Below, piece after piece: positions 35,482 through 49,761 of a DNA stretch of 64,000 nt (position 1 is its first letter; every line of letters starts with the position of its first letter). Made by a program: the position numbers and the translations under genes. Below the pieces are notes generated by a model. That model worked only from the letters and a program-made list of their open reading frames with translations. It searched no databases and had not been told where the DNA came from. Origin of the DNA: Candidatus Dormibacteria bacterium. Its GTDB lineage: Bacteria; Chloroflexota; Dormibacteria; Aeolococcales; Aeolococcaceae. The DNA lies in contig JBPCLW010000047.1 in NCBI GenBank assembly GCA_051002895.1, positions 2,273 to 66,272 on the forward strand. The letters run 5' to 3'.

Positions 35482-36758
35482 GATGGGACGCCAGCGACCG
35501 CATTGGCGGCGATGTCCTCGCGGATCCGCATGCCGTCGAACTGGACACGACCGACGTTTGCGTAGGCATGGCTCCGCGCCGCAGCCAGATCATCGCCGCG
35601 ACCGACAACAGTGAGCACGCGACCCCCGGCGGTCACCAGCTCTCCGGCGGCGTTGTGCGCCGTTCCCGCCTGGAAGCAGAGAGCCCGAGCGTCGATGTCG
35701 TCGATGCCGGTGATGGCATCGCCGACATGCGGGGGTGCCGGATATCCGGCGGCGCAGGCAACCACGCCGACCGCGGCCCCGCTCGCCGGTGTCGCAGGTG
35801 TGTCGGCGAGAGTGCCCCGCGCCACCCCGTCGAGGAGATCGAGTACGCCCTCGCCGAGGAGCGGCAGGATCACCTGGGTTTCTGGATCACCGAGGCGGGC
35901 GTTGAACTCGAGTACGCGGATGCCATCGCGGGTGAGCATGAGTCCGGCATAGAGGCAGCCGACGAACGGTGAGCCCCCATCCGCGAGCGCGTCGATGACC
36001 GGTTCGATAACCTGGCGCTGCACCTCGTCGAGAAGCGTGCCATCGGTTGTCCCAGGCGCGTACGCGCCCATCCCTCCGGTGTTGGGGCCGACATCGCCAT
36101 CGAGCGCGCGCTTGTAATCGCGCGCCGACGCCAGCATGCGGACGTCACGACCGTCGCTGAGCGCGAAGACGGAGAGCTCCTCACCTTCGAGGAACTCCTC
36201 GACAACGACGACGTCCCCCGCGTCGCCGAAGCGGCGCTCGTTGAGGCAGGTGGCGAGGGCAGCGGTGGCATCCTCGCGGTCCTCGCAGATGGCCACGCCC
36301 TTGCCGAGAGCGAGGCCGTCCGCCTTGACGACACAGCGACCGTTGAGATCAATGACGAAGTCGAAGAGGTCGGCGCGGGCCTCGCGACCTCCGGAGCGCC
36401 ACCGTGCGGTGGGCACGCCGGCCTTGCCCATGAGTTCCTTGGCAAAGCTCTTGCTTGACTCGATGCGTGCCGCCGCTGCGTCGGGGCCGAAAACCGCAAT
36501 CCCCGCTGCCCGGCAGGCGTCGCCCGCGCCGGCGGCGAGGGCAGCGTCAGGACCGAGGACGACGAGATCGATCTCCCGCTGCCGCGCCAGTTGAGCGATG
36601 GCGGCTCCGTCGGTGACGCGCAGCGGGATGTTCTCGGCAACCAGGGCGGTCCCGGGGTTGCCCGGAGCGCACAGCACTTCCGGCCGGCTGGCGTCGCGGG
36701 CGCAGGCCCAGGCCAGAGCGTGTTCGCGGCCGCCGGATCCAACGATGAGGACTCGCAT
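35478..36758 (-). CDS. purD: phosphoribosylamine--glycine ligase
   Basis: MRVLIVGSGGREHALAW...; ATP-grasp; 4-nt overlap with purE. Confidence 0.9.
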   Translation of the reverse strand: MRVLIVGSGGREHALAWACARDASRPEVLCAPGNPGTALVAENIPLRVTDGAAIAQLARQREIDLVVLGPDAALAAGAGDACRAAGIAVFGPDAAAARIESSKSFAKELMGKAGVPTARWRSGGREARADLFDFVIDLNGRCVVKADGLALGKGVAICEDREDATAALATCLNERRFGDAGDVVVVEEFLEGEELSVFALSDGRDVRMLASARDYKRALDGDVGPNTGGMGAYAPGTTDGTLLDEVQRQVIEPVIDALADGGSPFVGCLYAGLMLTRDGIRVLEFNARLGDPETQVILPLLGEGVLDLLDGVARGTLADTPATPASGAAVGVVACAAGYPAPPHVGDAITGIDDIDARALCFQAGTAHNAAGELVTAGGRVLTVVGRGDDLAAARSHAYANVGRVQFDGMRIREDIAANAVAGVPS

Positions 36759-36892
36759 CGGCCCGATTGTGTGGGATTGGACGCGATTCCGGCTCTGGGG
36801 TCCTGAGATCGGGCTATGGCGGGGTTATACTCGCGATGCGATTCATCCGGGGGGTGTGACGCAGCTGCTGCGCACGGAGGCTGGCCAGGGGC

Positions 36893-37876
36893 ATGTGGCG
36901 CTACATCGTCAAGCGACTTCTCCTCGGTGTCGTCACCGTCTTCATCATCTCGGCGGTCATCTATCTCCTCATCGAGCAGTTGCCCGGCTCGTACATCGAC
37001 AGCCTGCTGCATCAACCGCGTCAGAGTGAAGCCCAGCGGGCCGCCCTGGCGCATTACTACGGCCGCGACAGACCGGTCATCGTGCGTTACTTCAACTGGT
37101 TGGTCGATGCCGTCCACGGCGACCTGGGATTCTCGTTCAGCCGCAACCAGACGGTCCTCGAGGCGATCAGCCAGCGGATCCTGCCCACGGCCATCCTCAT
37201 GGGCGTCTCCTACATCATCACCCTGCTCATCGCCGTCCCCATCGGCATCATCAGCGCGGTCAAGCAGTACAGCAAGTTGGACACCGGGGTAACTGCCTTC
37301 TCGTTCTTCGGATACGCGCTTCCCAACTACTGGTTCGGCGCCATCCTCATCTTCGTCTTCGCCATTCCCCATGGAGGCCACGCTGGAGTCCTTCCGGTAG
37401 GTGGCATCCTCAGCAACAGCAGCACCGACTACGTCGGCAATCTTGGCGATCTGGCGGTGCATCTCATCATGCCCACCATCGTTCTCACGGTGCAGTCGGT
37501 GGCGGTGTACTCCCGCTATGTCCGTAGCACGATGATGGAGACGCTCCGGCAGGACTACATCAGGACCGCGCGCGCTAAGGGACTGACACCGAGGACCATC
37601 ATCCTCCGTCACGGGTTTCGCAATTCACTGCTGCCGCTCATCACCCTCGTCGCCCTGGATCTGCCGCAGCTCTTCGTTGGGGCAGTCATCACCGAGTTCG
37701 TCTTCAACTGGCCGGGGATGGGCCAGCTCTTCGTCCGCGCCGCCGGCGACAAGGACACGGCGCTGCTGGTGGGAGTCCTCCTCATCCTGGCCACCTTCGT
37801 GGTCGTCTTCAACCTCCTCGCCGACCTGCTGTACAGCGTGGCCGACCCGCGCATCTCCTATGAGGGTGCCCACTGA
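36893..37876 (+). CDS. ABC transporter permease, DppB/OppB type
   Basis: MWRYIVKRLL N-terminus, six TM helices, EAA-like loop. Confidence 0.8.
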   Translation: MWRYIVKRLLLGVVTVFIISAVIYLLIEQLPGSYIDSLLHQPRQSEAQRAALAHYYGRDRPVIVRYFNWLVDAVHGDLGFSFSRNQTVLEAISQRILPTAILMGVSYIITLLIAVPIGIISAVKQYSKLDTGVTAFSFFGYALPNYWFGAILIFVFAIPHGGHAGVLPVGGILSNSSTDYVGNLGDLAVHLIMPTIVLTVQSVAVYSRYVRSTMMETLRQDYIRTARAKGLTPRTIILRHGFRNSLLPLITLVALDLPQLFVGAVITEFVFNWPGMGQLFVRAAGDKDTALLVGVLLILATFVVVFNLLADLLYSVADPRISYEGAH

Positions 37877-38787
37877 TGGCGACGACCGCCGCGGCTCCCC
37901 TGGCGGCCACCAGCGGCATCGACTTCGAGACCACCAAGGAGATCGGCTATTACCGGCTGGTCTGGCGCCGCTTCAAGTCCCGCCGCATCGCGCTGGTCGC
38001 TGCGGGCGTCCTTGCCTTTGTTGTGGCAGCCTGCGTGGTCATCCCCTTCTTCCTGCCCGCCGACACCGCCCGGCCGGGGCAGCTCTTCCTCGGCCTCTCC
38101 GCCGAGCATCCCTTCGGCACCGATGAATCCGGCCGCGATCTCTTCACCCGCGTCCTCCTCGGCGGCCGGACGTCACTGCTGGTGGGCCTTCTCGCCATGC
38201 TGGCGACCATCTTCATCGCCACCCTGGTGGGCGCGCTGGGCGGCTTCTTCGGCGGCATCACCGACAGCCTGCTCTCGGCACTGACCAACGCCTTCCTCTC
38301 GATGCCGGCGCTGCTGGTCCTCGTCATCTATGCGCAGGTGCTCAACCACAAGGATGTCTTCACCGTCGTCACCGGCATCGCGCTCGTCGCCTGGACGACG
38401 ACCGCCCGCATCGTGCGCTCGGTGGTGCTCTCCCTACGGGAAAAGGAGTACGTCGAGGCGGTGCGTGCTCTGGGGACGTCCCGCCCCCGCATCATCCTCC
38501 GCCACATTCTCCCCAACGCGCTGGGCACCATCATCGTGTCGGCGTCGCTCACCATCGCCGCCGCCATCCTCCTCGAGTCGGCCCTGTCGTTTCTCGGTGT
38601 CGGCATTGGCGAGCCGCTGGCGAGTTGGGGCTCCCTTCTGTCCAAGGGCGACGACGCCATCACCAGTCAGGGCGACTTCCTGTACGCACTTTGGCCGGGG
38701 CTGGCCATCCTCACCGTTGTGCTCTGCTTCAGCTACCTCGGCGACGCCCTCAACGATGCCTTCGATCCCAGGGCCCTGGAGCGTTGA
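37876..38787 (+). CDS. ABC transporter permease, DppC/OppC type
   Basis: Start overlaps the upstream stop (ATGA); typical OppC topology. Confidence 0.8.
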   Translation: MATTAAAPLAATSGIDFETTKEIGYYRLVWRRFKSRRIALVAAGVLAFVVAACVVIPFFLPADTARPGQLFLGLSAEHPFGTDESGRDLFTRVLLGGRTSLLVGLLAMLATIFIATLVGALGGFFGGITDSLLSALTNAFLSMPALLVLVIYAQVLNHKDVFTVVTGIALVAWTTTARIVRSVVLSLREKEYVEAVRALGTSRPRIILRHILPNALGTIIVSASLTIAAAILLESALSFLGVGIGEPLASWGSLLSKGDDAITSQGDFLYALWPGLAILTVVLCFSYLGDALNDAFDPRALER

Positions 38788-39935
38788 CCCAACTCTCCGA
38801 CGCTCTGCCCCAGGCGAGGGTACGCGCGCTGAGCGCCGTCCCCCGCAAACCGATCAGCTTTCTCGACACCGACACGCAGATCCAGGCCGGTGATGTCGTG
38901 CTCGAGGTGAGCGGTCTGCGATCCCACTTCTTCACCAATGACGGCATCGTCAAGGCGGTGGATGGGGTCGATTTCCGGGTCCGGGCGGGCGAAACATTGG
39001 GCATCGTCGGTGAGTCCGGCTGCGGGAAGAGCCAGACGTCGCTCTCGATCATGCGGCTCCTGACCCGGCCGGGGCGCACTGTGGCGGGACGCATCAATTT
39101 CCGCGGCCACAACCTCCTCGAGCTCACCGACCGGCAGATGTTCGAACTCCGCGGCTCCGAGATCGCCATGATCTTTCAGGAACCGATGACGGCGCTGAAC
39201 CCGGTGTTCCGGGTCGGCGACCAGATTACCGAGGTGCTCCGCCAGCACACTTCTCTACGCGGTGACGCCTCGCGCAAGCGGGTCATCGAGCTCTTCGACA
39301 AGGTGCGCATTCCCTCGCCGGCGCAGCGCATCAGGGAGTACCCACACCAACTCTCCGGAGGCATGCGCCAGCGGGTGATGATCGCCATGGCGCTCGCCTG
39401 CAACCCCCGGTTGCTCATCGCTGACGAGCCCACCACCGCGCTCGACGTCACCATCCAGGCACAGATCCTCGCGCTGATCGAGGATCTCAAGCGCACCGAG
39501 AACATGGCGGTGGTGCTCATCACCCACGACCTTGGAGTCATCGCCGAGGCGGCCGATGACGTCACCGTGATGTACGCCGGCAAGGTGGTGGAGAGCGCCC
39601 CCGTCAAGGAACTCTTTGCCAGTCCCGAGCACCCCTACACCCAGGGGCTGCTCCGCTCCATCCCCACTCCCGAGCGGTTGGGGACGCGTCTCGACGCCAT
39701 CGCCGGAGTCGTACCCCATCCTCTCAACCTTCCGCCGGGATGCAGCTTTGCTCCGCGCTGTTCAAAGAAGTTCGAGCCCTGTGACAGCGCCTTTCCGCTG
39801 CTTGACCACACGTCACCGTCGCACCGCGTGGCCTGCTACCTGTACACCGATGAGCAATCGGAGCGGCGGTCTGACGGTGGTCCCGAGATCGATCCCAGCA
39901 GCCCGCTCGCCGAAGAGGTCGGCGCCACCGAATGA
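38784..39935 (+). CDS. ABC transporter ATP-binding protein, DppD/OppD type
   Basis: GESGCGKS Walker A, LSGGMRQR signature, C-terminal oligopeptide-ABC (Cys-cluster) region. Putative TTG start at 38784 overlapping the permease stop (ORF track places an earlier Met at 38625). Confidence 0.7.
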
Positions 39936-41407
39936 CGGAGCCGGTCATTTCCACCGCCCACACGCCCGACGTCCGTACTCGGCCGCCACTGCCGGCGGAG
40001 ATTCGTGCCATCCCCGCCTTCCTCGTCGCGCTCGTGGTCGTCGACCTGCTGCGCGATTTTGTGGGGCCGAGCCTCACCAACGGTGAAGTGCTGGCGGTGG
40101 GAGTAGCGATCATGGCAGTTCTCGTCAGTACAGGCTTCCTTACCTACACCCGCGGGATTCGGATGACGGTGAGAGTCCTCCTATTTGTCAACATCTTCCT
40201 GCTCTTCGCCAACCCGCTGGTGGGCCAGGGCCACTTTCAACTCACCTCGATTGCCGCACTGTTGCTCTCCGTCATTGTCCTCTACCTGCTGAGTGCCCAG
40301 AGCACCAAGGAGGCGTTCCGTCTCGCCGCCTCGGGCGGAGCACCCATCCGCATCAGAGTCGAACCGCAGCTGCCGCAAGGAGGTGCTTCGGCACAGCGTG
40401 AGGTCCTGTACAGCGTCCGCGGTCTCACCAAGCACTTCCCGGTCAAGGGCGGTCTGCTGGGCACCACGGTCAACGAGGTCCAGGCTGTCACTGACATCAG
40501 CTTCGACATCTACCGCGGCGAAACCATCGGTCTGGTCGGCGAGTCCGGCTGCGGCAAGACCACCACCGGCCGTCTGCTCCTTCGGCTCCTCGAGGCCACG
40601 CGTGGGCAACTCATCTTCGACGGCCGCGACATCCGTCGGCTCACCCACCTGGAGCTGAAGCCCTACCGCGCCAAGATGCAGATCATCTTCCAGGACCCCT
40701 ATGCATCGCTGAATCCGCGGCTCCCTGTCGGCGACATCATCGGAGAGGGGTTGTACAACTTTGGCGTGCGCAGCGCCGCAGAGCGAGAGCGCCGCGTCGC
40801 CGCGATGCTCGACATCGTGGGGCTGCGAAAGTACTACATCAACCGCTATCCCCACGAGTTCAGCGGCGGTCAGCGCCAGCGCATCGGCATCGCTCGTGCG
40901 CTCATCCTCAAGCCCTCGTTCGTCATCGCCGACGAGCCGGTATCGGCTCTCGACGTCTCCATCCAGGCGCAGGTTCTCAACCTCCTCAAGGACCTGCAGG
41001 ACGAGTTCAAGCTGACCTACGTCTTCATCTCTCACAACCTCTCGGTCGTGCAGCATGTCAGCGACCGCGTTGGCGTCATGTACCTCGGCAAGCTGGCGGA
41101 ACTCGCCGATTCCACCGAGCTATACGCGCATCCCAAGCACCCCTATACCCAAGCGCTGCTCAGTGCCATCCCCATCCCCGATCCACAGCTTCGCCGCGAG
41201 CGCATCCTCCTCGACGGTGATGTGCCCTCGCCGATCGATCCGCCCAGCGGGTGCAGGTTCCACACCCGCTGCCCGATTGCCCAAGCTGAGTGCACGTCAG
41301 CGGAGCCGGTCTTCGAGGCCAAGGGGGGAAACCCCCGACACCTGGCGGCCTGCCACTTCGCTGAGAGCAGCGCCGCGAGGGAGCTAGAGGCCAAGACCGC
41401 CCTCTAG
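39932..41407 (+). CDS. ABC transporter ATP-binding protein, DppF/OppF type, with a ~160-aa N-terminal polytopic membrane extension
   Basis: ATG overlaps the upstream TGA (ATGA). Four predicted TM helices precede the NBD ([26 protein letters not shown]). No in-frame start lies near the NBD, so the fusion appears genuine. Confidence 0.65.
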
Positions 41408-41410
41408 GCA

Positions 41411-43192
41411 ATGCACGATTCCCCCGTGCCGACACGACGATCACTGATCGGGCCGGCAGCCGCCATCGTCGCCTACGAGAATGTCGTCACCGTGATCACC
41501 GGTGGAGAGCTCTTCACCTCGGGGTTGGCGGCTCTGACGATCTCGGCGGTGCTGATCGTGGCGATGATTTTCTGGTCGAGTCGCTGCCGTCTCACATTGG
41601 CCGAGATTGGAATCAGCCGAAATGGTGCCCTGCGTGGTGCGGCAATCGGCGTGGGAGTGGGAGCTCTGATGGCGATTCCTGTGCTCCTCCTCTCGCACAG
41701 CAATTCTCTGACTCCCAGATCCGTTCGATCGCGCACAATCCACCGTGTGCACGACCTCATCGACCGTGTCCTCGACCTCGCCAACGGCTCGGGTGCCGGC
41801 TACGCGGACTGCCGGGTGGTGGAACGAACCGTACAGCACTGCGCCGTCAAGGACGGTGCCGTTGCCGAGGTGAACAGCTTCGAGGACAGCGGTGTCGGAG
41901 TGCGCGTCGTTGTCGATGGTGGCTGGGGCTTCGCCAGCACCGACCGCGTCGATGCCGCCGGCGTCACCGCGATGGTTGTGAGCGCCGTGCGTATCGCCCG
42001 AGCCTCGGCCCGGGTGCGGCACGAGCCGGTGCGTCTCGCTCCCACGCCCGTTGTCCAGGGGCGCTACGAAACGCCTGTGAACCGCGACCCTTTCAGCGTG
42101 AGCATCGGCGACAAGCTTGGCCTGCTCATGGACTGCGACGCGGCCATGTCCGGGATCACCGGTATCAGCACTCGTCAGGCGAGCGTGGAGTGCGTCCGCG
42201 AGACGCGCTACTTCGGTAATTCCGAGGGAACTCGCACCGAGCAGGTCATCATCGAATCGGGAGGCGGCCTCGACGCCACCGCCACCAGCACTGACGAGGT
42301 GCAGACACGGAGTTACCCCAACAGCTTCGGGCGCCATCAGCTCTGCGCTGGCTGGGAGGCCGTCGAGGCCATGGCACTCGCTGAGAACGCCGAGGCGATC
42401 GCCCACGAGGCGGTGGCCCTGCTCACTGCAGAACCGTGTCCCACGGGAAGGATGACGCTCATCCTCGACCCCACCCAGGCCGCTCTGCAGGTGCACGAGA
42501 GCTGCGGTCATCCCACCGAGCTCGACCGAGCCCTCGGCGATGAGGCCGCTTACGCGGGCACCTCATTCCTGGAACCACCGATGCTGGACTCCTTCCGCTA
42601 CGGCAGTGAGGCCGTGACCATCACCGCCGACGCCACGCGGGCCACCGGGCTGGGCACCTTCGGATGGGACGACGAGGGCGTGGCGGCCCAGCGCACCACG
42701 CTTGTTGATCGTGGACTGTTCACCGGCTATATGACCTCGCGAGAGACGGCGGCACGATTCGAGCAGCCCTCCAACGGCACCATGCGCGCCGAGGCATGGA
42801 ACCGCATTCCCCTGATTCGCATGACCAACGTCAACCTCGAGGCAGGCGACTCCTCTCTCGAGGAGATGGTCGCCAGCACCGAGCGGGGCGTGTATCTGCA
42901 GACCAACCGCTCCTGGTCGATCGACGATCGTCGCCTCAACTTCCAGTTCGGCACCCAGAATGGCTGGGAAATCCGCGATGGCAAGCGCGTGCGCTTGGTC
43001 AAGAACGCCCTCTACAGCGGCCGGACCCCGGACTTCTGGAACAGTTGCGACGCCGTCGCCGGTCCCGCCGAATGGTCGATGTGGGGGGTGGTGAACTGCG
43101 GCAAGGGCCAACCCGGTCAGGTCCTCCATGTCGGCCACGGCGCGGCATCCTGCCGCTTCCAGAACGTGGCTATCACCGGCGCTCGCGGATGA
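41411..43192 (+). CDS. tldD: TldD family metalloprotease, with a hydrophobic ~100-aa N-terminal region
   Basis: HESCGH motif and TldD/PmbA fold. The ATG is 3 nt after the upstream stop; an alternative GTG start lies at ~41747. Confidence 0.75.
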   Translation: MHDSPVPTRRSLIGPAAAIVAYENVVTVITGGELFTSGLAALTISAVLIVAMIFWSSRCRLTLAEIGISRNGALRGAAIGVGVGALMAIPVLLLSHSNSLTPRSVRSRTIHRVHDLIDRVLDLANGSGAGYADCRVVERTVQHCAVKDGAVAEVNSFEDSGVGVRVVVDGGWGFASTDRVDAAGVTAMVVSAVRIARASARVRHEPVRLAPTPVVQGRYETPVNRDPFSVSIGDKLGLLMDCDAAMSGITGISTRQASVECVRETRYFGNSEGTRTEQVIIESGGGLDATATSTDEVQTRSYPNSFGRHQLCAGWEAVEAMALAENAEAIAHEAVALLTAEPCPTGRMTLILDPTQAALQVHESCGHPTELDRALGDEAAYAGTSFLEPPMLDSFRYGSEAVTITADATRATGLGTFGWDDEGVAAQRTTLVDRGLFTGYMTSRETAARFEQPSNGTMRAEAWNRIPLIRMTNVNLEAGDSSLEEMVASTERGVYLQTNRSWSIDDRRLNFQFGTQNGWEIRDGKRVRLVKNALYSGRTPDFWNSCDAVAGPAEWSMWGVVNCGKGQPGQVLHVGHGAASCRFQNVAITGARG

Positions 43193-44508
43193 GTGCCGAT
43201 GTCGACGAGCTCCTCTCACTCGCCGATCGCCTTCTCCTCGAGGCGGGTGCTGAGGGCGCGGAGGTTCGCGCCGTCGCCCACCGCAGTGGGCTCACTCGCT
43301 TCGCCCGTAACCAGATTCATCAGAACGTTGCCGAGGAGCAGGTGTCGCTGCGCCTGCGTCTGGTGCGCGATGGCCGGGTGGGGGTTGCTGCGACACGCGG
43401 GCAGACCGACATCGCTCGCCTGGTGGAGGCGGCCGACGCGGCACGGCTGCGCTCTCCCGCGGCCGAGGTGGCCCCGCTACCGTCCCCGCAGGAAGAGACC
43501 CCCGTCGCTGCGGCGTTCGCGGACTCCACCGCCGCAGCAACGCCGGAATGGCGAGCCGATCAGGTTGCGGTGATTGCCGCTGCGGCATCGGCTGCGGGCA
43601 TCGAGTCCTTCGGCGCCCTGGAGACAGCCGCCACCGCCACCTGCGTGGTGAACGGTCGGGGACTGCGCCGCCATGCCCGCACCACGTCAGTACGGCTCTC
43701 CACCGTGTGTCGCGGTGCTGACGGCGGGGGCTATGCCGATCGCTGCGCAGCGGACATCGAGAACATTGATTCCGCCGGTTGCGCCGGGGAGGTTGTGACA
43801 ACGACCCTGCGCAACCAGGCCGCGATGTCGCTCGAGCCAGGCATTCTTCCGGTGGTGCTCGCGCCGTATGCAATCGCTGAATTGGTCGGGCACCTCTCCG
43901 ACATGGGCTTCAGTGCTCTCGCTGCGCAGGAGCAGCGCAGCTTCATGCGTCCCGGAGAACGCCTCGTCGCGATCCCCATCAGCATCAGCGACGACGCCAC
44001 CGCGAGCGAGGGCATGCCCTTTCCCTTCGACGACGAGGGGGTGACGGCACGACCGGTCACCTGCATCGAGAGGGGGGTCTGTCGGGACCACCTCCACGAT
44101 AGCGCCACCGCGCTGCGTGCCGGGGTTGGCTCGACCGGCCATGCACTCCCGATGCCGAATACCTGGGGGCCATATGGCCGCCACTTGGTGATGGCTCCAG
44201 GGACGGCGAGCCTCGAGGAGATGATCTCCTCGTGCGAGCGCGGGCTTCTCGTCACCCGGTTCTGGTACGTGCGCAATGTGCACGTCCTCCGCACCACAAT
44301 CACCGGCATGACCCGCGAGGGCACCTTCCTCATCGAGAACGGCCGCATCGTCCGACCGGTGCGCGACCTCCGTTTCACCCAGAGCATCATCGACGCACTG
44401 AACGACGTCCGCGCGGTGGGACGCGAGCGGTCACTGCATGTCGAGGAGGGCGGCCGCGCGCTTCTCGTGCCCGCTCTGCATCTCGGGCACTTCGAGTTCA
44501 CTTCCTGA
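43189..44508 (+). CDS. pmbA: TldE/PmbA family protein (TldD partner)
   Basis: ATG overlaps the tldD TGA; 439 aa with PmbA-like C-terminal fold. The ORF-track entry 42796..44508 includes an out-of-frame 5' extension. Confidence 0.75.
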   Translation: MSADVDELLSLADRLLLEAGAEGAEVRAVAHRSGLTRFARNQIHQNVAEEQVSLRLRLVRDGRVGVAATRGQTDIARLVEAADAARLRSPAAEVAPLPSPQEETPVAAAFADSTAAATPEWRADQVAVIAAAASAAGIESFGALETAATATCVVNGRGLRRHARTTSVRLSTVCRGADGGGYADRCAADIENIDSAGCAGEVVTTTLRNQAAMSLEPGILPVVLAPYAIAELVGHLSDMGFSALAAQEQRSFMRPGERLVAIPISISDDATASEGMPFPFDDEGVTARPVTCIERGVCRDHLHDSATALRAGVGSTGHALPMPNTWGPYGRHLVMAPGTASLEEMISSCERGLLVTRFWYVRNVHVLRTTITGMTREGTFLIENGRIVRPVRDLRFTQSIIDALNDVRAVGRERSLHVEEGGRALLVPALHLGHFEFTS

Positions 44509-44600
44509 GCGAGGAGCGGGAGAGGAAAATCCCCGAACGGGTGTACCGGATGCGTCGACGACGTCGTTCTCCCCGCTGCTATGGTGGACGGGGATCGGCC

Positions 44601-45785
44601 ATGGAGCACAGGACAGAGATGCAGGACGTCGTCATCGTTGAAGCGGTACGCACCCCTCTGGGGCGCGGCAACCAGAAGAACGGAGATCTGCGGGACGTGC
44701 ATCCCGTGGTCATCGGAGCCCACGTCCTGCGTGAGGTGACTGGGCGGGTGAACCTCGACCCAGCCCTGGTGGATGACGTCATCTTTGGCTGCGTTTCGCA
44801 GACTGGTGAGCAATCCATCAACATCGCCCGCCAGGCGACACTCCTTGCAGGGTTCCCCGTCGAGGTCCCCGCCACCACTGTTGACCGGCAGTGCGGGAGC
44901 TCCCAGCAGGCGATTCACTTCGCTGCCAACCTCATCCAGAGCGGTGTATGCGACATCACCGTCGCCGCCGGTGTGGAGTCGATGAGCCGTATCCCCATGG
45001 GAAGCACCGTCTTCCAGGGCCCCGGCGCGCCGTTCCCGCCGGAGTTGCTCGAGCACTACAACCTGGTGTCGCAGGGAGTAGCCTGCGAGATGATTGCTGA
45101 GCAGTGGAAGATCAGTCGCGAGGAGGCCGACGAGTTCGCCGCCGAGTCGCAGCGCCGGGCGGCCCAGGCGCAGTCCGAGGGACGCTTCGATCGCGAGATC
45201 GCACCCATCGTCGTCGGTGACAACGGTGACGGTCGCGTGGTCTCGCAGGACCAGGGAATCCGGCCGGGTACCACCATGGAGTCGCTCGGTGGGCTGCAGC
45301 CGTCGTTCAAGGCCGACGGTGTTCTCCATGCGGGGAACAGTTCCCAGATCACCGACGGCGCCGCAGCCGTGCTCCTCATGTCGCGTCAGAAGGCCGCCGA
45401 ACTAGGTCTCTGCGCCCGCGCCGTCATTCGCGCCCAGGCGGTTGTCGGCGTGGACCCCGTGACCATGCTCACCGGTCCGATCCCCGCCACCACCAAGGTG
45501 CTGAAGCAGGCCGGTATCATTCTCTCCGACGTCGACCGCGTCGAGATCAACGAAGCGTTCGCGCCCGTCGTACTCGCCTGGAAGCGCGAGCACAACCCGG
45601 ACATGGAGCGCGTCAACGTCAACGGTGGTGCCATTGCCCTCGGTCACCCCCTCGGCGCATCGGGTGCTCGTCTCATGGCCACGCTGCTCCATGAGCTGGA
45701 AAGGAGCGACCGCCAGATCGGTCTCCAGACCATGTGCTGCGGTGGCGGTCTGGGAACTGCAACGGTCATCGACCGCACCGTCTGA
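44601..45785 (+). CDS. acetyl-CoA C-acetyltransferase (thiolase)
   Basis: DVVIVEAVRTPLGR...CGSSQQAI (active-site Cys)...NVNGGAIALGHPLGASGARL...CGGGG thiolase signatures. ATG at 44601 (GGGGA upstream); the ORF-track extension from 44232 is rejected. Confidence 0.85.
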   Translation: MEHRTEMQDVVIVEAVRTPLGRGNQKNGDLRDVHPVVIGAHVLREVTGRVNLDPALVDDVIFGCVSQTGEQSINIARQATLLAGFPVEVPATTVDRQCGSSQQAIHFAANLIQSGVCDITVAAGVESMSRIPMGSTVFQGPGAPFPPELLEHYNLVSQGVACEMIAEQWKISREEADEFAAESQRRAAQAQSEGRFDREIAPIVVGDNGDGRVVSQDQGIRPGTTMESLGGLQPSFKADGVLHAGNSSQITDGAAAVLLMSRQKAAELGLCARAVIRAQAVVGVDPVTMLTGPIPATTKVLKQAGIILSDVDRVEINEAFAPVVLAWKREHNPDMERVNVNGGAIALGHPLGASGARLMATLLHELERSDRQIGLQTMCCGGGLGTATVIDRTV

Positions 45786-48700
45786 TCAGCCGACCGGCTC
45801 GGGTTCCGGTGCACCCCGCAACTCCGCCATCATCTCGTCGAACCGACCGGAGTACACCGCGAAGTAGCGCGCCTCGGGGTGGTGGAGCGTGATCGCGGCG
45901 GTGGACTGCTCGGGGACGAGCTGAAAGCCCTCGGTGAGCTCGACACCAATGCGGTCGGCAGGGACGATCTGAAAGAACGTCTCGTGGTCCTCAAGGTCGG
46001 GGCACGCGGGGTATCCCCACGAGTAGCGCCGGCCCTGGTCGGGACCGAGCTTCAGTTCGCGGCGGATGTGCGTATGGATGTACTCCGCCGTCGCCTCCGC
46101 CATCTGCGTGGCGAAGCCGTGAACCCGGAGCATGTCGTCGTACGCGCCCTCGCGCTGCAGCCGATTGCTCAGTTCACTTGCATGCGGTCCGGCCGTCACC
46201 ACCTGCAGAGCGATGACGTCGCGCTCGCCGGCTGCGACCTCGGTGCGGGGACGTATGTAGTCGGCGAGGCAGAGACGGTTCTGCTCGGTCTGGCGCGGGA
46301 AGCGGAAGCGCCCAATCTCGCGATCGTGATCCTCGGGGTTGAAGACGACGATGTCGTTACCCTCGGCCAGCGCCGGCCAGTAGCCATATACCGCCTGGAG
46401 GTCGAGCCAGCGGTCGCGCTGTGCCTCGCGCATGGAGCGTTCCAGTCGTGGTTCGAGCTCGGTAGCGACAAGCTCTTCCCATCGGGTCTTGTCGTGGACT
46501 CCTTTGAACTGCCACGACATCTTGAAGAGTGAATTGCGGTCAATGTGGGAATACACGGCCTGGGGACTGATGCCACTCACCACCTGGGCGCCCCAGAACG
46601 GCGGTTGCGGGATGGACACATCAGTGCGGGTGTCGCTGCGCGCAGGTGGTGAGACAGCGTCGCCACCTGACGTGGCGGCGGCAGATGCGGCGGCCTTCTC
46701 CTGCTCCCGCTCTTGGTGGAGCCGCCCCTCGCTGCGGATGCGCTCAACCAGGGGGTTGCGACGCTGCGGGTCGACGAGTTGGTCGCAGGTGTCCAGACCC
46801 TCGAACGCATCCTTGCAGTAGAAGACGCCGGGGTCATAGGGATTCTCGGCGTCAATGAAGAGGATGCGGCGCCCGAAGCCGCGATTGATTGCGGCACCGC
46901 CGATGATGACCGGGTAGCGCAACCGACGACGCTCCAACTCCTGGAGCATGAGTGGCATCTGCTTGCTCGTCGACACCAGCAATGCAGAGAGCCCGATGAC
47001 GTCGGCCTCCACCTCGATGGCCTTCTCGATGATGGTGGTGAGGGGCACCTGCTTGCCGAGGTCGTGGACCGTGTAGCCATTGTTGGTGAGGATCGTGTTC
47101 ACCAGGTTCTTGCCGATGTCGTGCACGTCACCAAAGACCGTGGCGAGGACCACACGCCCCTTGGTCTGACCATCCTTCTTCTCGAGGAACTGCTCCACGT
47201 GGGCGACGGCGCGCTTCATCACCTCGGCGGACTGGAGCACGTACGGCAGGATCAGTTCGCCGGCCCCAAAGCGATCGCCGACATCTTTCATGGCCGGGAG
47301 CAGAACCTCGTTGAGGACAGCGACCGGGGTGCGCTCGAGCAGGACGAGGTCGATCTGTTCCTCGATGCCGTCCTTCTTGCGCAGGAGGATCTGCTGGTGA
47401 ATGCGCTGTGCGGGGTCGAGGCCGGCCAAGGGATCCTCGCGCTGGGCAACGCCGATCTCTCCCGTCCGCCCCTCGAAGTGCTCGATGAGCGCGGTGAGTG
47501 CGTTCTCGCCGCGGTTGAAGATGAGGTCCTCGGTGAGGTCGCGTTCTGCCTGGGGGATCTCGGCATACGGCGCCACGTGGACGGGGTTGATGATCGCGGT
47601 GTCGAGCCCCGCCTCGACGCAGTGATGGAGGAAGACGGAGTTGATGACCGCCCGCGCGTGCGGTTTGAGTCCGAAGCTGACATTGCTGACACCCAGGCAG
47701 GTGTGCACGCCGGGCAGCTCCTGCTTGATAAGGCGGATGCCCTCGATGGTCTCCACCGCGGAATCGATCCACTCCTTGTCGCCGGTGGCGAGAGTGAACG
47801 TCAGCGCGTCGAAGAGGATCTGCTCCGGCCGCACGCCGAATTCGTCGGCGATGGCTACGATGCGACGGGCGATCTCCAGCTTGCGCTCGCGCGTCTTCGC
47901 CATCCCCGCCTCGTCGATGGTGAGCGCGATGACCGTCTGGCCATGGTCGCGCACCAGGGGGAGAACCGCCTCGCAACGGGTGCGGCCATTCTCCAGGTTG
48001 ACGGAGTTGACGATCCCCCGCCCGGGATAGCTCTCCAGCGCCTCGCGGACGACATCGGCGTCGGTGGAGTCGAAGACGAGCGGGGTGTCGACGCTCATCT
48101 GCAGGGTCTTGACGACGTGGTGCATCTGCTCGGCCTCATCGACCCGCTCGGTGAGAGCGACACAGACGTCGAGGGCGTGGGCACCACCCTCGACCTGGTG
48201 GCGACCAACGCCGAGGATGCCCTGATAGTCGTCGTTGAGGAGGAACTCCTTGATCCTGCGCGATCCCTGCGAGTTGACCCGCTCGCCGATCAGCAATGGC
48301 GCCGGCTGCTGCTCGAGGTCGACAGCGCGCATGCTGCTCGCCAGCCGCGGACGCAGGTCGGGGCGCCGTGGCAGCGGCGCGCGGATGCCAATGCGCTCGC
48401 GCAGCGCGGTGATGTGCGCCGGGGTGGTGCCGCAGCAACCACCGACGATTCCCACACCGAACTCGGCGACGAACTCGAGGAGCTGGTCCGCCATGGGATT
48501 GGGCTCAAGCGGGAAGTGGGCGCGGCCCCCGACGTTCAGAGGCAACCCGGCGTTGGGAATGCAGGCAATCGGCACCGGAGAGTTCTCACCGAGGTAGCGG
48601 ATGGCGTCGCGCATGTGCTCGGGACCGGTGGAGCAATTCAGCCCGATGATGTCGACGCGCAGTCCGTCGAGCGTGGCTGTGACCGCCCCGATCTCGGTGC

Positions 48701-49343
48701 CGAGAAGCATGCGCCCGCTGACATCGAGCGATACCTGCGCCTGGATGGGAACCCAGCGGCCGGTGATGTCGATGGCCCTCCGGGCCCCGAAGATCGCCGC
48801 CTTGGTCTCCAAGAGATCCTGCTGGGTCTCGATGACGAGCACGTCGCTGCCTCCCTCGATGAGGCCCTGACACTGCTCGGCAAAGGCATCGACGAGGGCA
48901 GGGAAACGGATGCGCCCGAGTGAGGGATCGCTCGACGCCGGGAGATTGCCGGTGGGACCAATGGATCCGGCCACGAATCGCGGTTGCTCTGCTGTGGAGA
49001 CGGTGTCACAGGCCTCTCGGGCAATCTCCGCGCCCCGGCGGTTGAGCTCGAGGGTGCGATCAGCCTGACCCCACTCCTCGAGGCGCAGCCGGGTGGCCTG
49101 GAAGGTGCAGGTCTCCACGGCGTCAGCCCCGGCACTGAGCATCGTTCGATGGATCTCCCGGACGATGTCCGGGCTGTGGAGGACGAGTCCGTCGATCCAC
49201 CCGTCGAGGGACGTGCCGCCGAACTGGTGGGAGTTGGGCTCCAAGCTTTGGACGCTCGTTCCCATGGCGCCATCGAAGACGAGGACGCGCTCTCGCAGAG
49301 CCTCCAGATAGGCGGATCCGGTGTCGGATGTGGTTCGACCCAT
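45786..49343 (-). CDS. metH: cobalamin-dependent methionine synthase
   Basis: Hcy-binding, pterin-binding, B12-binding (DVHDIGKN) and AdoMet activation domains. Start at the ATG at 49343 ([29 protein letters not shown]); the ORF-track extension to 49610 is rejected. Confidence 0.9.
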
Positions 49344-49566
49344 GCTTCTCACTTCTCTCTCGCTGCCGCCCATTCCGGGCTCGGATCCGGGCCTGCGTGC
49401 TACTCTCGGCAGCCGGCAGCGAGTACGGAATCCCGTTGCAGACACTATAGAGGAGAACCCCTTGGCGCGACGTCCACCTCGTCCCGGCGGTCGTCGCCGC
49501 CCGCCCACACGACGGGCACCGAGTGACGACTCCACCAAGGTTGCCGTCAAGGAAGAGACCATCGAA

Positions 49567-49761
49567 ATGGACGCCGTCGTCGTCGAGCCGCTCCCCAACG
49601 CGATGTTCAAGGTGAAGCTCCAGACCGGCCAGGATGTCCTCGCCTACACCTCGGGAAAGATGCGCAAGTTCTACATCCGCATCCTCATTGGTGACCGTGT
49701 TCGAGTGGAACTCAGCCCCTACGACCTTTCCCGCGGGCGCATCACCTTTCGCTACAAGTAG
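49567..49761 (+). CDS. infA: translation initiation factor IF-1
   Basis: [60 protein letters not shown] closely matches bacterial IF-1; the ATG is preceded by AAGGAAGAG. Confidence 0.75.

Follow-up and report, generated by a model that had tools for sequence, protein, structure and literature searches.

A peptide-type ABC transporter operon that continues into tldD-tldE in Candidatus Dormibacteria, and its relatives across the Dormibacterota

Why are the genes of a peptide-type ATP-binding cassette (ABC) transporter, with no gene for a substrate-binding protein (SBP) beside them, placed directly ahead of the genes for the peptidase TldD/TldE? The question is raised by a 64-kb stretch of a soil Candidatus Dormibacteria metagenome-assembled genome (hereafter the window; GC content 66%), in which six plus-strand open reading frames (ORFs), dppB, dppC, dppD, dppF, tldD, and tldE, span positions 36893–44508 and overlap or lie 3 nt apart. 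Dormibacterota are an uncultured soil phylum thought to inhabit nutrient-poor soils. We consider it probable that this locus encodes an oligopeptide importer that works with an SBP supplied in trans, is co-transcribed with TldD/TldE, and feeds peptide degradation in the cytoplasm. The absence of the SBP gene appears to be a local peculiarity of this genome, and the pairing of peptide-transport genes with tldD-tldE recurs throughout a clade of related species.

The first-pass annotation of this DNA had described six coupled plus-strand genes at these positions, and the ORFs, their Pfam domains, and our reading of the junctions bear this out, with one correction. The stop and start codons of dppB (36893–37876) and dppC (37876–38787) share TGATG, a 1-nt overlap, where an ATGA had been noted. 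The sequence reads TTGA at dppC/dppD and ATGA at dppD/dppF, tldD and tldE overlap by ATGA, and dppF and tldD are separated by a 3-nt gap (TAG-gca-ATG). This last spacing holds only if a species-specific N-terminal insertion in tldD, described below, is translated. Codon usage is normal in the operon genes. Upstream of dppB lie purD (with GARS domains) and purE, divergently oriented on the minus strand. The purD-dppB intergenic region of 134 nt contains the sole promoter-like match within 36500–45000 (CTGAGA, a 17-nt spacer, and TATACT; 36803–36831, plus strand), a predicted site from which dppBCDF and tldDE could be transcribed together as an operon with a promoter of its own.

The first four genes appear to encode the translocator portion of a binding-protein-dependent ABC importer of the PepT family (Opp/Dpp/Nik type). 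As in DppABCDF and OppABCDF of E. coli and Salmonella (PepT, TC 3.A.1.5), there are two BPD_transp_1 permeases, one of them with an OppC_N domain, and two ATPases with canonical Walker and signature motifs and a C-terminal oligo_HPY domain. The DppB/OppB-like permease (327 aa) has BPD_transp_1 (PF00528, 1e-38) and BPD_transp_1_N (PF19300), and the DppC/OppC-like permease (303 aa) has OppC_N (PF12911) and BPD_transp_1 (PF00528), so that an OppB-like and an OppC-like subunit are both present; EAA-type loops are visible in both translations. The DppD/OppD-like ATPase (38784–39935, plus strand; 383 aa) combines ABC_tran (PF00005) with oligo_HPY (PF08352), as does the DppF/OppF-like ATPase (39932–41407, plus strand; 491 aa including an N-terminal extension), where these domains occupy residues 187–337 and 390–454, respectively. 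Both translations retain intact Walker A, Walker B, and signature motifs, and the IADEP motif is present. The TTG start codon of dppD is supported by the conservation of its 38-aa N-terminal leader in the DppD of the closest relative (L165, see below). Judged from their translations, the four transporter genes look intact. Unlike DppABCDF and OppABCDF, the window system has no SBP gene in cis, its DppF has a four-helix N-terminal extension, and its operon runs on into tldD-tldE. None of its proteins reaches an NCBIfam equivalog cut-off: the best matches mix Opp, Nik, and Dpp models, and DppF scores 407.7 bits against the dipeptide ATPase subfamily, for which the cut-off is 408. Thus, the family models do not define a substrate class.

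The last two genes encode both partners of a TldD/TldE pair. The core of the catalytic subunit TldD, 481 aa from a GTG codon (41747–43192, plus strand), contains PmbA_TldD domains 1 to 3 (PF01523, PF19290, and PF19289), and the non-catalytic partner TldE/PmbA (43189–44508, plus strand; 439 aa) contains domains 1 and 3 (PF01523 and PF19289). Among structures in the PDB, the two proteins match 5NJ5_A, 5NJ5_B, and 1VL4, with TldD aligning to 5NJ5_A and TldE matching PmbA and PmbA-related chains. An HExxxH motif and a distal cysteine ligand are the defining residues of TldD (PMC5810440). In the alignment to 5NJ5 chain A, HESCGH of the window TldD falls on HEAVGH of the E. coli protein (His262/His267) and CGK falls on the ligand Cys454; at the equivalent place TldE has AELVGH and no HExxxH. 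The fold is therefore shared by both subunits and the set of metal-ligand motifs is found in TldD only, the same division as in the E. coli proteins. The window TldD is only distantly similar to E. coli TldD (phmmer E = 2.5e-23), and the two systems differ in setting. In the window tldD and tldE are adjacent, overlapping, and placed at the far end of an ABC importer operon, and tldD has a 112-codon in-frame N-terminal insertion; in E. coli the two genes are presumably unlinked, with no transporter beside them.

Does the transporter work without a binding protein? The observation in the first-pass annotation that no SBP gene precedes the permeases, with purD upstream on the opposite strand, is borne out by the sequence and by tblastn: four family-5 SBPs from relatives used as queries found no family-5 SBP in the 64-kb window. 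SBP-less operation is not supported, given that related dppBCDF genes have an SBP gene upstream and that the closest relative points to a local loss. This relative (L165; JGI 3300064040, Ga0604922_0000474; best TldD match P0002, 74% identity) is sister to the window in a neighbour-joining tree of TldD that carries no support values. Its genes are ordered as a divergent NarL-type two-component system (response regulator and histidine kinase, minus strand), an SBP of 655 aa with a lipoprotein-type signal peptide (L165:3316-5283), dppB (327 aa), dppC (303 aa), dppD (383 aa), dppF (506 aa), tldD (481 aa), and tldE (443 aa), with a thiolase further on. The window shares this gene order from dppB onward, the identical lengths of DppB, DppC, and DppD, the DppF extension, the 3-nt distance between dppF and tldD, the downstream thiolase, and the promoter-like element of dppB. 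What L165 keeps, and the window does not, are the lipoprotein SBP and the two-component system; the L165 TldD, in turn, has no insertion.

In L165 the SBP gene is followed by a terminator-like hairpin with a T-run. After the hairpin, a segment of the SBP-dppB intergenic region containing TATACTCG aligns with the promoter-like site at 36803–36831 of the window. Because this region is conserved between the two, the breakpoint lies just upstream of it. The arrangement in the window is thus derived: by a rearrangement at this point, purE-purD took the place of the two-component system and SBP gene, and the lack of an SBP gene at the locus is most likely just the scar that it left. More distant relatives agree with this picture. 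A metagenome scan with DppB as the query returned L088, L089, L092, and L163 as the closest ABC relatives, with 70–75% identity in DppD and in the DppF core, and an SBP gene lies directly upstream of all window-type dppBCDF genes with upstream sequence among them (L088, L089, and L092). In L092 the order is SBP-dppBCDF, an msrPQ-like pair, and tldDE; the intervening pair (L092:14416-16469) comprises a molybdopterin oxidoreductase and a cytochrome b561.

We then evaluated how widely peptide-transport genes accompany tldDE. Scanning one genome per GTDB species with TldD yielded 80 loci. For mapping these, the tblastn queries were the window proteins together with SBP, two-component-system, C26, and Lon proteins drawn from the same loci; the domains SBP_bac_5, Peptidase_C26, Response_reg with GerE, and HAMP/HisKA_3/HATPase_c were confirmed with Pfam. 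The tldD-tldE pair is universal among the loci mapped. A Dormibacterota-type clade, defined by TldD at least 58% identical, comprises 41 loci with usable upstream sequence, most of them labelled Dormibacterota and a few found under other labels. In 32 of these 41 species tldD-tldE has a co-oriented family-5 SBP gene directly upstream: one SBP gene immediately before tldD in 13 species, two in 15, and an SBP-dppBCDF-tldDE arrangement in four (L021, L022, L024, and L033). An ABC block is parted from tldDE by the two-component system in one further species (L026), the two-component system alone is upstream in seven, and one species has another arrangement. Measured to the homologous TldD start, the gap between tldD and the gene before it is mostly 3–74 nt. 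The linkage claimed in the first-pass annotation is conserved across the clade, as also in the full operon of L165, and does not look accidental, so that the interpretation offered there is supported in part.

No permease genes occur near SBP-tldDE in 28 of the 32 species; a lack of linkage between SBP and permease genes is the norm in this phylum. The clusters of L010, L034, and L037 (SBP-tldD-tldE-peptidase C26) resemble the window in that peptide-ABC genes of one and the same family come immediately before tldD-tldE, and are otherwise its mirror image: one or more SBP genes are kept there and genes for permeases and ATPases are missing, whereas the window keeps permeases and ATPases and has neither an SBP nor a C26 gene. 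The SBPs beside tldDE in L007, L010, L013, L020, and L033 (L033b) align over their full length with the SBPs of L092 and L089 at 34–45% identity, which places them in the family cognate to a window-type translocator. In L021, L022, L024, and L026 the SBP-dppBCDF genes between the two-component system and tldDE are non-orthologous to those of the window (DppB approximately 30% identical); the ABC block of L026 is inverted relative to the two-component system.

The reading that we favor starts from an ancestral operon typical of Dormibacterota, which would have consisted of a lipoprotein SBP, dppBCDF, and tldD-tldE, with a divergent NarL-type two-component system before it and often, as in relatives, a C26 peptidase gene after it. 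In the window lineage the translocator would still dock a family-5 SBP, now encoded elsewhere in the genome, and imported oligopeptides would be degraded by the cytoplasmic TldD/TldE "pencil sharpener". TldD/TldE is known to shorten unfolded peptides processively, whatever their sequence (PMC5810440). The domains of the transporter are those of an importer that depends on a binding protein, so the simplest reading is that peptides are taken up as nutrients and then degraded; the unit most likely serves peptide uptake and catabolism rather than maturation of a RiPP. What the sequences show directly is the conservation, synteny, and gene content, the catalytic motifs, and that the SBP gene was lost from this locus; co-transcription, an SBP in trans, a peptide substrate, and the hand-off to TldD/TldE are inferred from these.

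Several observations weigh against this reading. The 64 kb of this genome that we searched hold no SBP gene to pair with the translocator. The substrate class is not fixed by NCBIfam, and the PepT family also moves nickel, opines, and glutathione. With its insertion, tldD has an ancestral start that lies 339 nt away from dppF, a distance that could weaken translational coupling. The seven related species with only a two-component system upstream have tldDE without a nearby SBP or ABC gene, so the coupling is not obligatory. Finally, of the 37 loci that belong to other phyla (Anaerolineae and Desulfobacterota among them), not one had an SBP or Dpp gene next to tldDE, a negative that rests on SBP queries derived from the clade, which divergent SBPs could escape.

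Two stretches of added sequence set this operon apart from ordinary members of its families. The N-terminal extension of DppF (39932–40405, plus strand; approximately 155 aa) contains four predicted hydrophobic helices (residues 22–40, 53–71, 75–93, and 104–122, from hydropathy). Its frame shows coding periodicity, with a codon-usage log-likelihood ratio of 0.46 compared with a gene mean of 0.52. An internal start codon that would remove the extension was considered and rejected, because the stretch from the fourth helix to the ATPase core contains no ATG, GTG, or TTG in frame. Collinear extensions occur in DppF of L165 and of P0241/L170, whose core is 92% identical to that of the window; DppF proteins of L092 and L033 have none. 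The region is hypervariable, with approximately 28% identity and indels between the window and L165, and the P0241 extension is shorter, with three hydrophobic segments and no fourth helix. The extension alone had no match among 5.8 billion proteins, and a two-sequence profile matched just ordinary DppF ATPases, via the core. HMMER against 1.84 billion representative proteins found P0241 as the sole true relative, two low-complexity matches being spurious. Searched against Pfam at E ≤ 10, both the extension and the tldD insertion gave sub-threshold noise and no family. The DppF variant, which is predicted to be membrane-anchored, is a small structural novelty among type I ABC importers. The independent Logan assemblies SRR33880236 and SRR33880237 (L001/L002 and L083/L084) are both interrupted in the interval from the dppD 3' half to the core of dppF (39385–40540 of the window); the break spans exactly the hypervariable extension and may reflect strain heterogeneity there. 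On the 1.7-kb JGI contig L170, dppF has a frameshift relative to the window near its 3' end (L170:1340-1500), the correct C-terminus being in another frame, and the approximately 220 nt past dppF resemble neither tldD nor the insertion of the window.

The second stretch is the in-frame insertion of 336 nt (112 codons; 41411–41746, plus strand) at the 5' end of tldD, which would encode two hydrophobic helices and is unique to the window species. With it, the tldD ORF reaches up to an ATG at 41411 (41411–43192). Approximately 120 TldD homologues have lengths of roughly 480 aa, and their alignments to the window protein begin at residue 100–134; GTG 41747, 339 nt past the dppF stop, aligns with the codon at which tldD starts in L165 and in most of the related loci that were examined. 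The 7-nt repeat TGCACGA flanks the insertion (41412 and 41748), directly after each of the two candidate start codons. The insertion is identical in two independent Logan assemblies, and its codon log-likelihood ratio is intermediate (0.22). No homologues were found in approximately 170 loci, the window, Pfam, or plasmids, and the insertion and the DppF extension are unrelated to each other. A mobile element cannot be called here: there is no plasmid match, and a search for terminal inverted repeats turned up no convincing ones, just short pairs at chance level.

Could these added helices explain the missing SBP gene? The DppF four-helix domain and the TldD hairpin might replace the SBP, or tether ATPase and peptidase at the membrane, in a transporter that is independent of a binding protein. 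The lack of an SBP gene in the locus and in the 64 kb would fit, as would the coding character of the DppF extension and its conservation in three lineages, and four helices in DppF and two in TldD would leave both catalytic domains in the cytoplasm. The case is undercut by L165, where DppF has the extension and a cognate SBP gene lies directly upstream; because L165 carries both, the extension would have arisen in an SBP-dependent system and does not substitute for an SBP. The shorter, three-segment extension of P0241 and the indels of this hypervariable region also tell against it, as do the restriction of the tldD insertion to one species and its intermediate codon statistics; to our knowledge, type I importers that naturally lack an SBP are exceptional. 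We regard SBP independence as improbable. More improbable still is its most specific form, in which the four-helix domain and the two-helix hairpin tether both proteins to the membrane and peptides pass directly to the peptidase; if true, translocator and peptidase would form one physical machine.

Two further explanations concern the pairing itself. The first-pass annotation had pointed toward a module for a ribosomally made, post-translationally modified peptide (RiPP); in such a module TldD/TldE would act as the leader peptidase, as in microcin B17 maturation, and the transporter would serve export or immunity. Tight coupling of tldDE to peptide-type ABC genes would suit such a module; TldD/TldE is the leader peptidase of microcin B17 (PMC5810440), and TldD-like proteases are reported from several RiPP clusters (PMC10885120). 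The BPD_transp_1 importer fold and the lipoprotein SBPs of relatives indicate import and not export. Within approximately 10 kb, neither the window nor the examined loci of relatives showed a gene for a precursor, a cyclodehydratase, a radical SAM protein, or another modification enzyme, as judged from Pfam annotation of neighbours (window, L165, L166, and L169) and approximately 80 tblastn maps, in which small precursor ORFs were not searched exhaustively. The neighbours are instead purE/purD, a thiolase, and metH, and in relatives the two-component system, peptidase C26, and Lon. With no biosynthetic neighbours in the window or its relatives, we reject the RiPP reading, to which we attach almost no probability. 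A more serious contender, though one that we think unlikely, is that the adjacency has no functional meaning: neighbours simply inherited within one phylum, with tldDE performing housekeeping. The seven species with just a two-component system upstream of tldDE are consistent with it, as are the other genes between the ABC block and tldDE in L026 and L092 and the failure to find the pairing outside the clade, in the 37 loci searched with clade-derived SBP queries. Mere inheritance accounts poorly for an association that holds down to approximately 59% TldD identity, outlasts rearrangements that leave only the SBP, only the ABC genes, or both, survives the exchange of the SBP-dppBCDF genes at this position for a non-orthologous set, and maintains operon-like spacing ahead of tldD.

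The surroundings of the operon were also compared. Approximately 110 nt after tldE the window has a thiolase, followed by metH, which encodes a B12-dependent methionine synthase of 1274 aa (45786–49610, minus strand). A metH gene is near tldDE also in L166 and L169, so that synteny is retained downstream of the operon and rearrangement is confined to its upstream flank. In most related species (L007, L009-L020, and L028-L044) the gene right after tldE is of the Peptidase_C26 (gamma-glutamyl hydrolase-like) type; such a gene is absent from the end of the window operon, where the thiolase stands instead. Solitary dppB-like genes that are 58–59% identical to the window DppB occur at L085:5623-6600, L086:3195-4172, and L087:10001-10978, without dppC, dppD, or dppF alongside, next to cobalamin-biosynthesis-like (CobQ-like) genes on contigs of very high GC content. 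Rfam and tRNA scans of the 64-kb window were both empty, with no cobalamin riboswitch or other Rfam family.

All components of the operon belong to known families, and the lack of an SBP gene at this locus is not a new transport principle. New are the operonic association of tldDE with peptide-ABC genes, which persists throughout one phylum, the DppF variant with its predicted membrane anchor, and the in-frame insertion in tldD; we found no paper describing an ABC-TldDE operon in the searchable literature. TldD/TldE is nearly universal, and its physiological role beyond the processing of microcin B17 and CcdA in E. coli is still unclear. The phylum-wide operon association leads to a testable idea, namely that TldD/TldE may finish the breakdown of imported oligopeptides in Dormibacterota.

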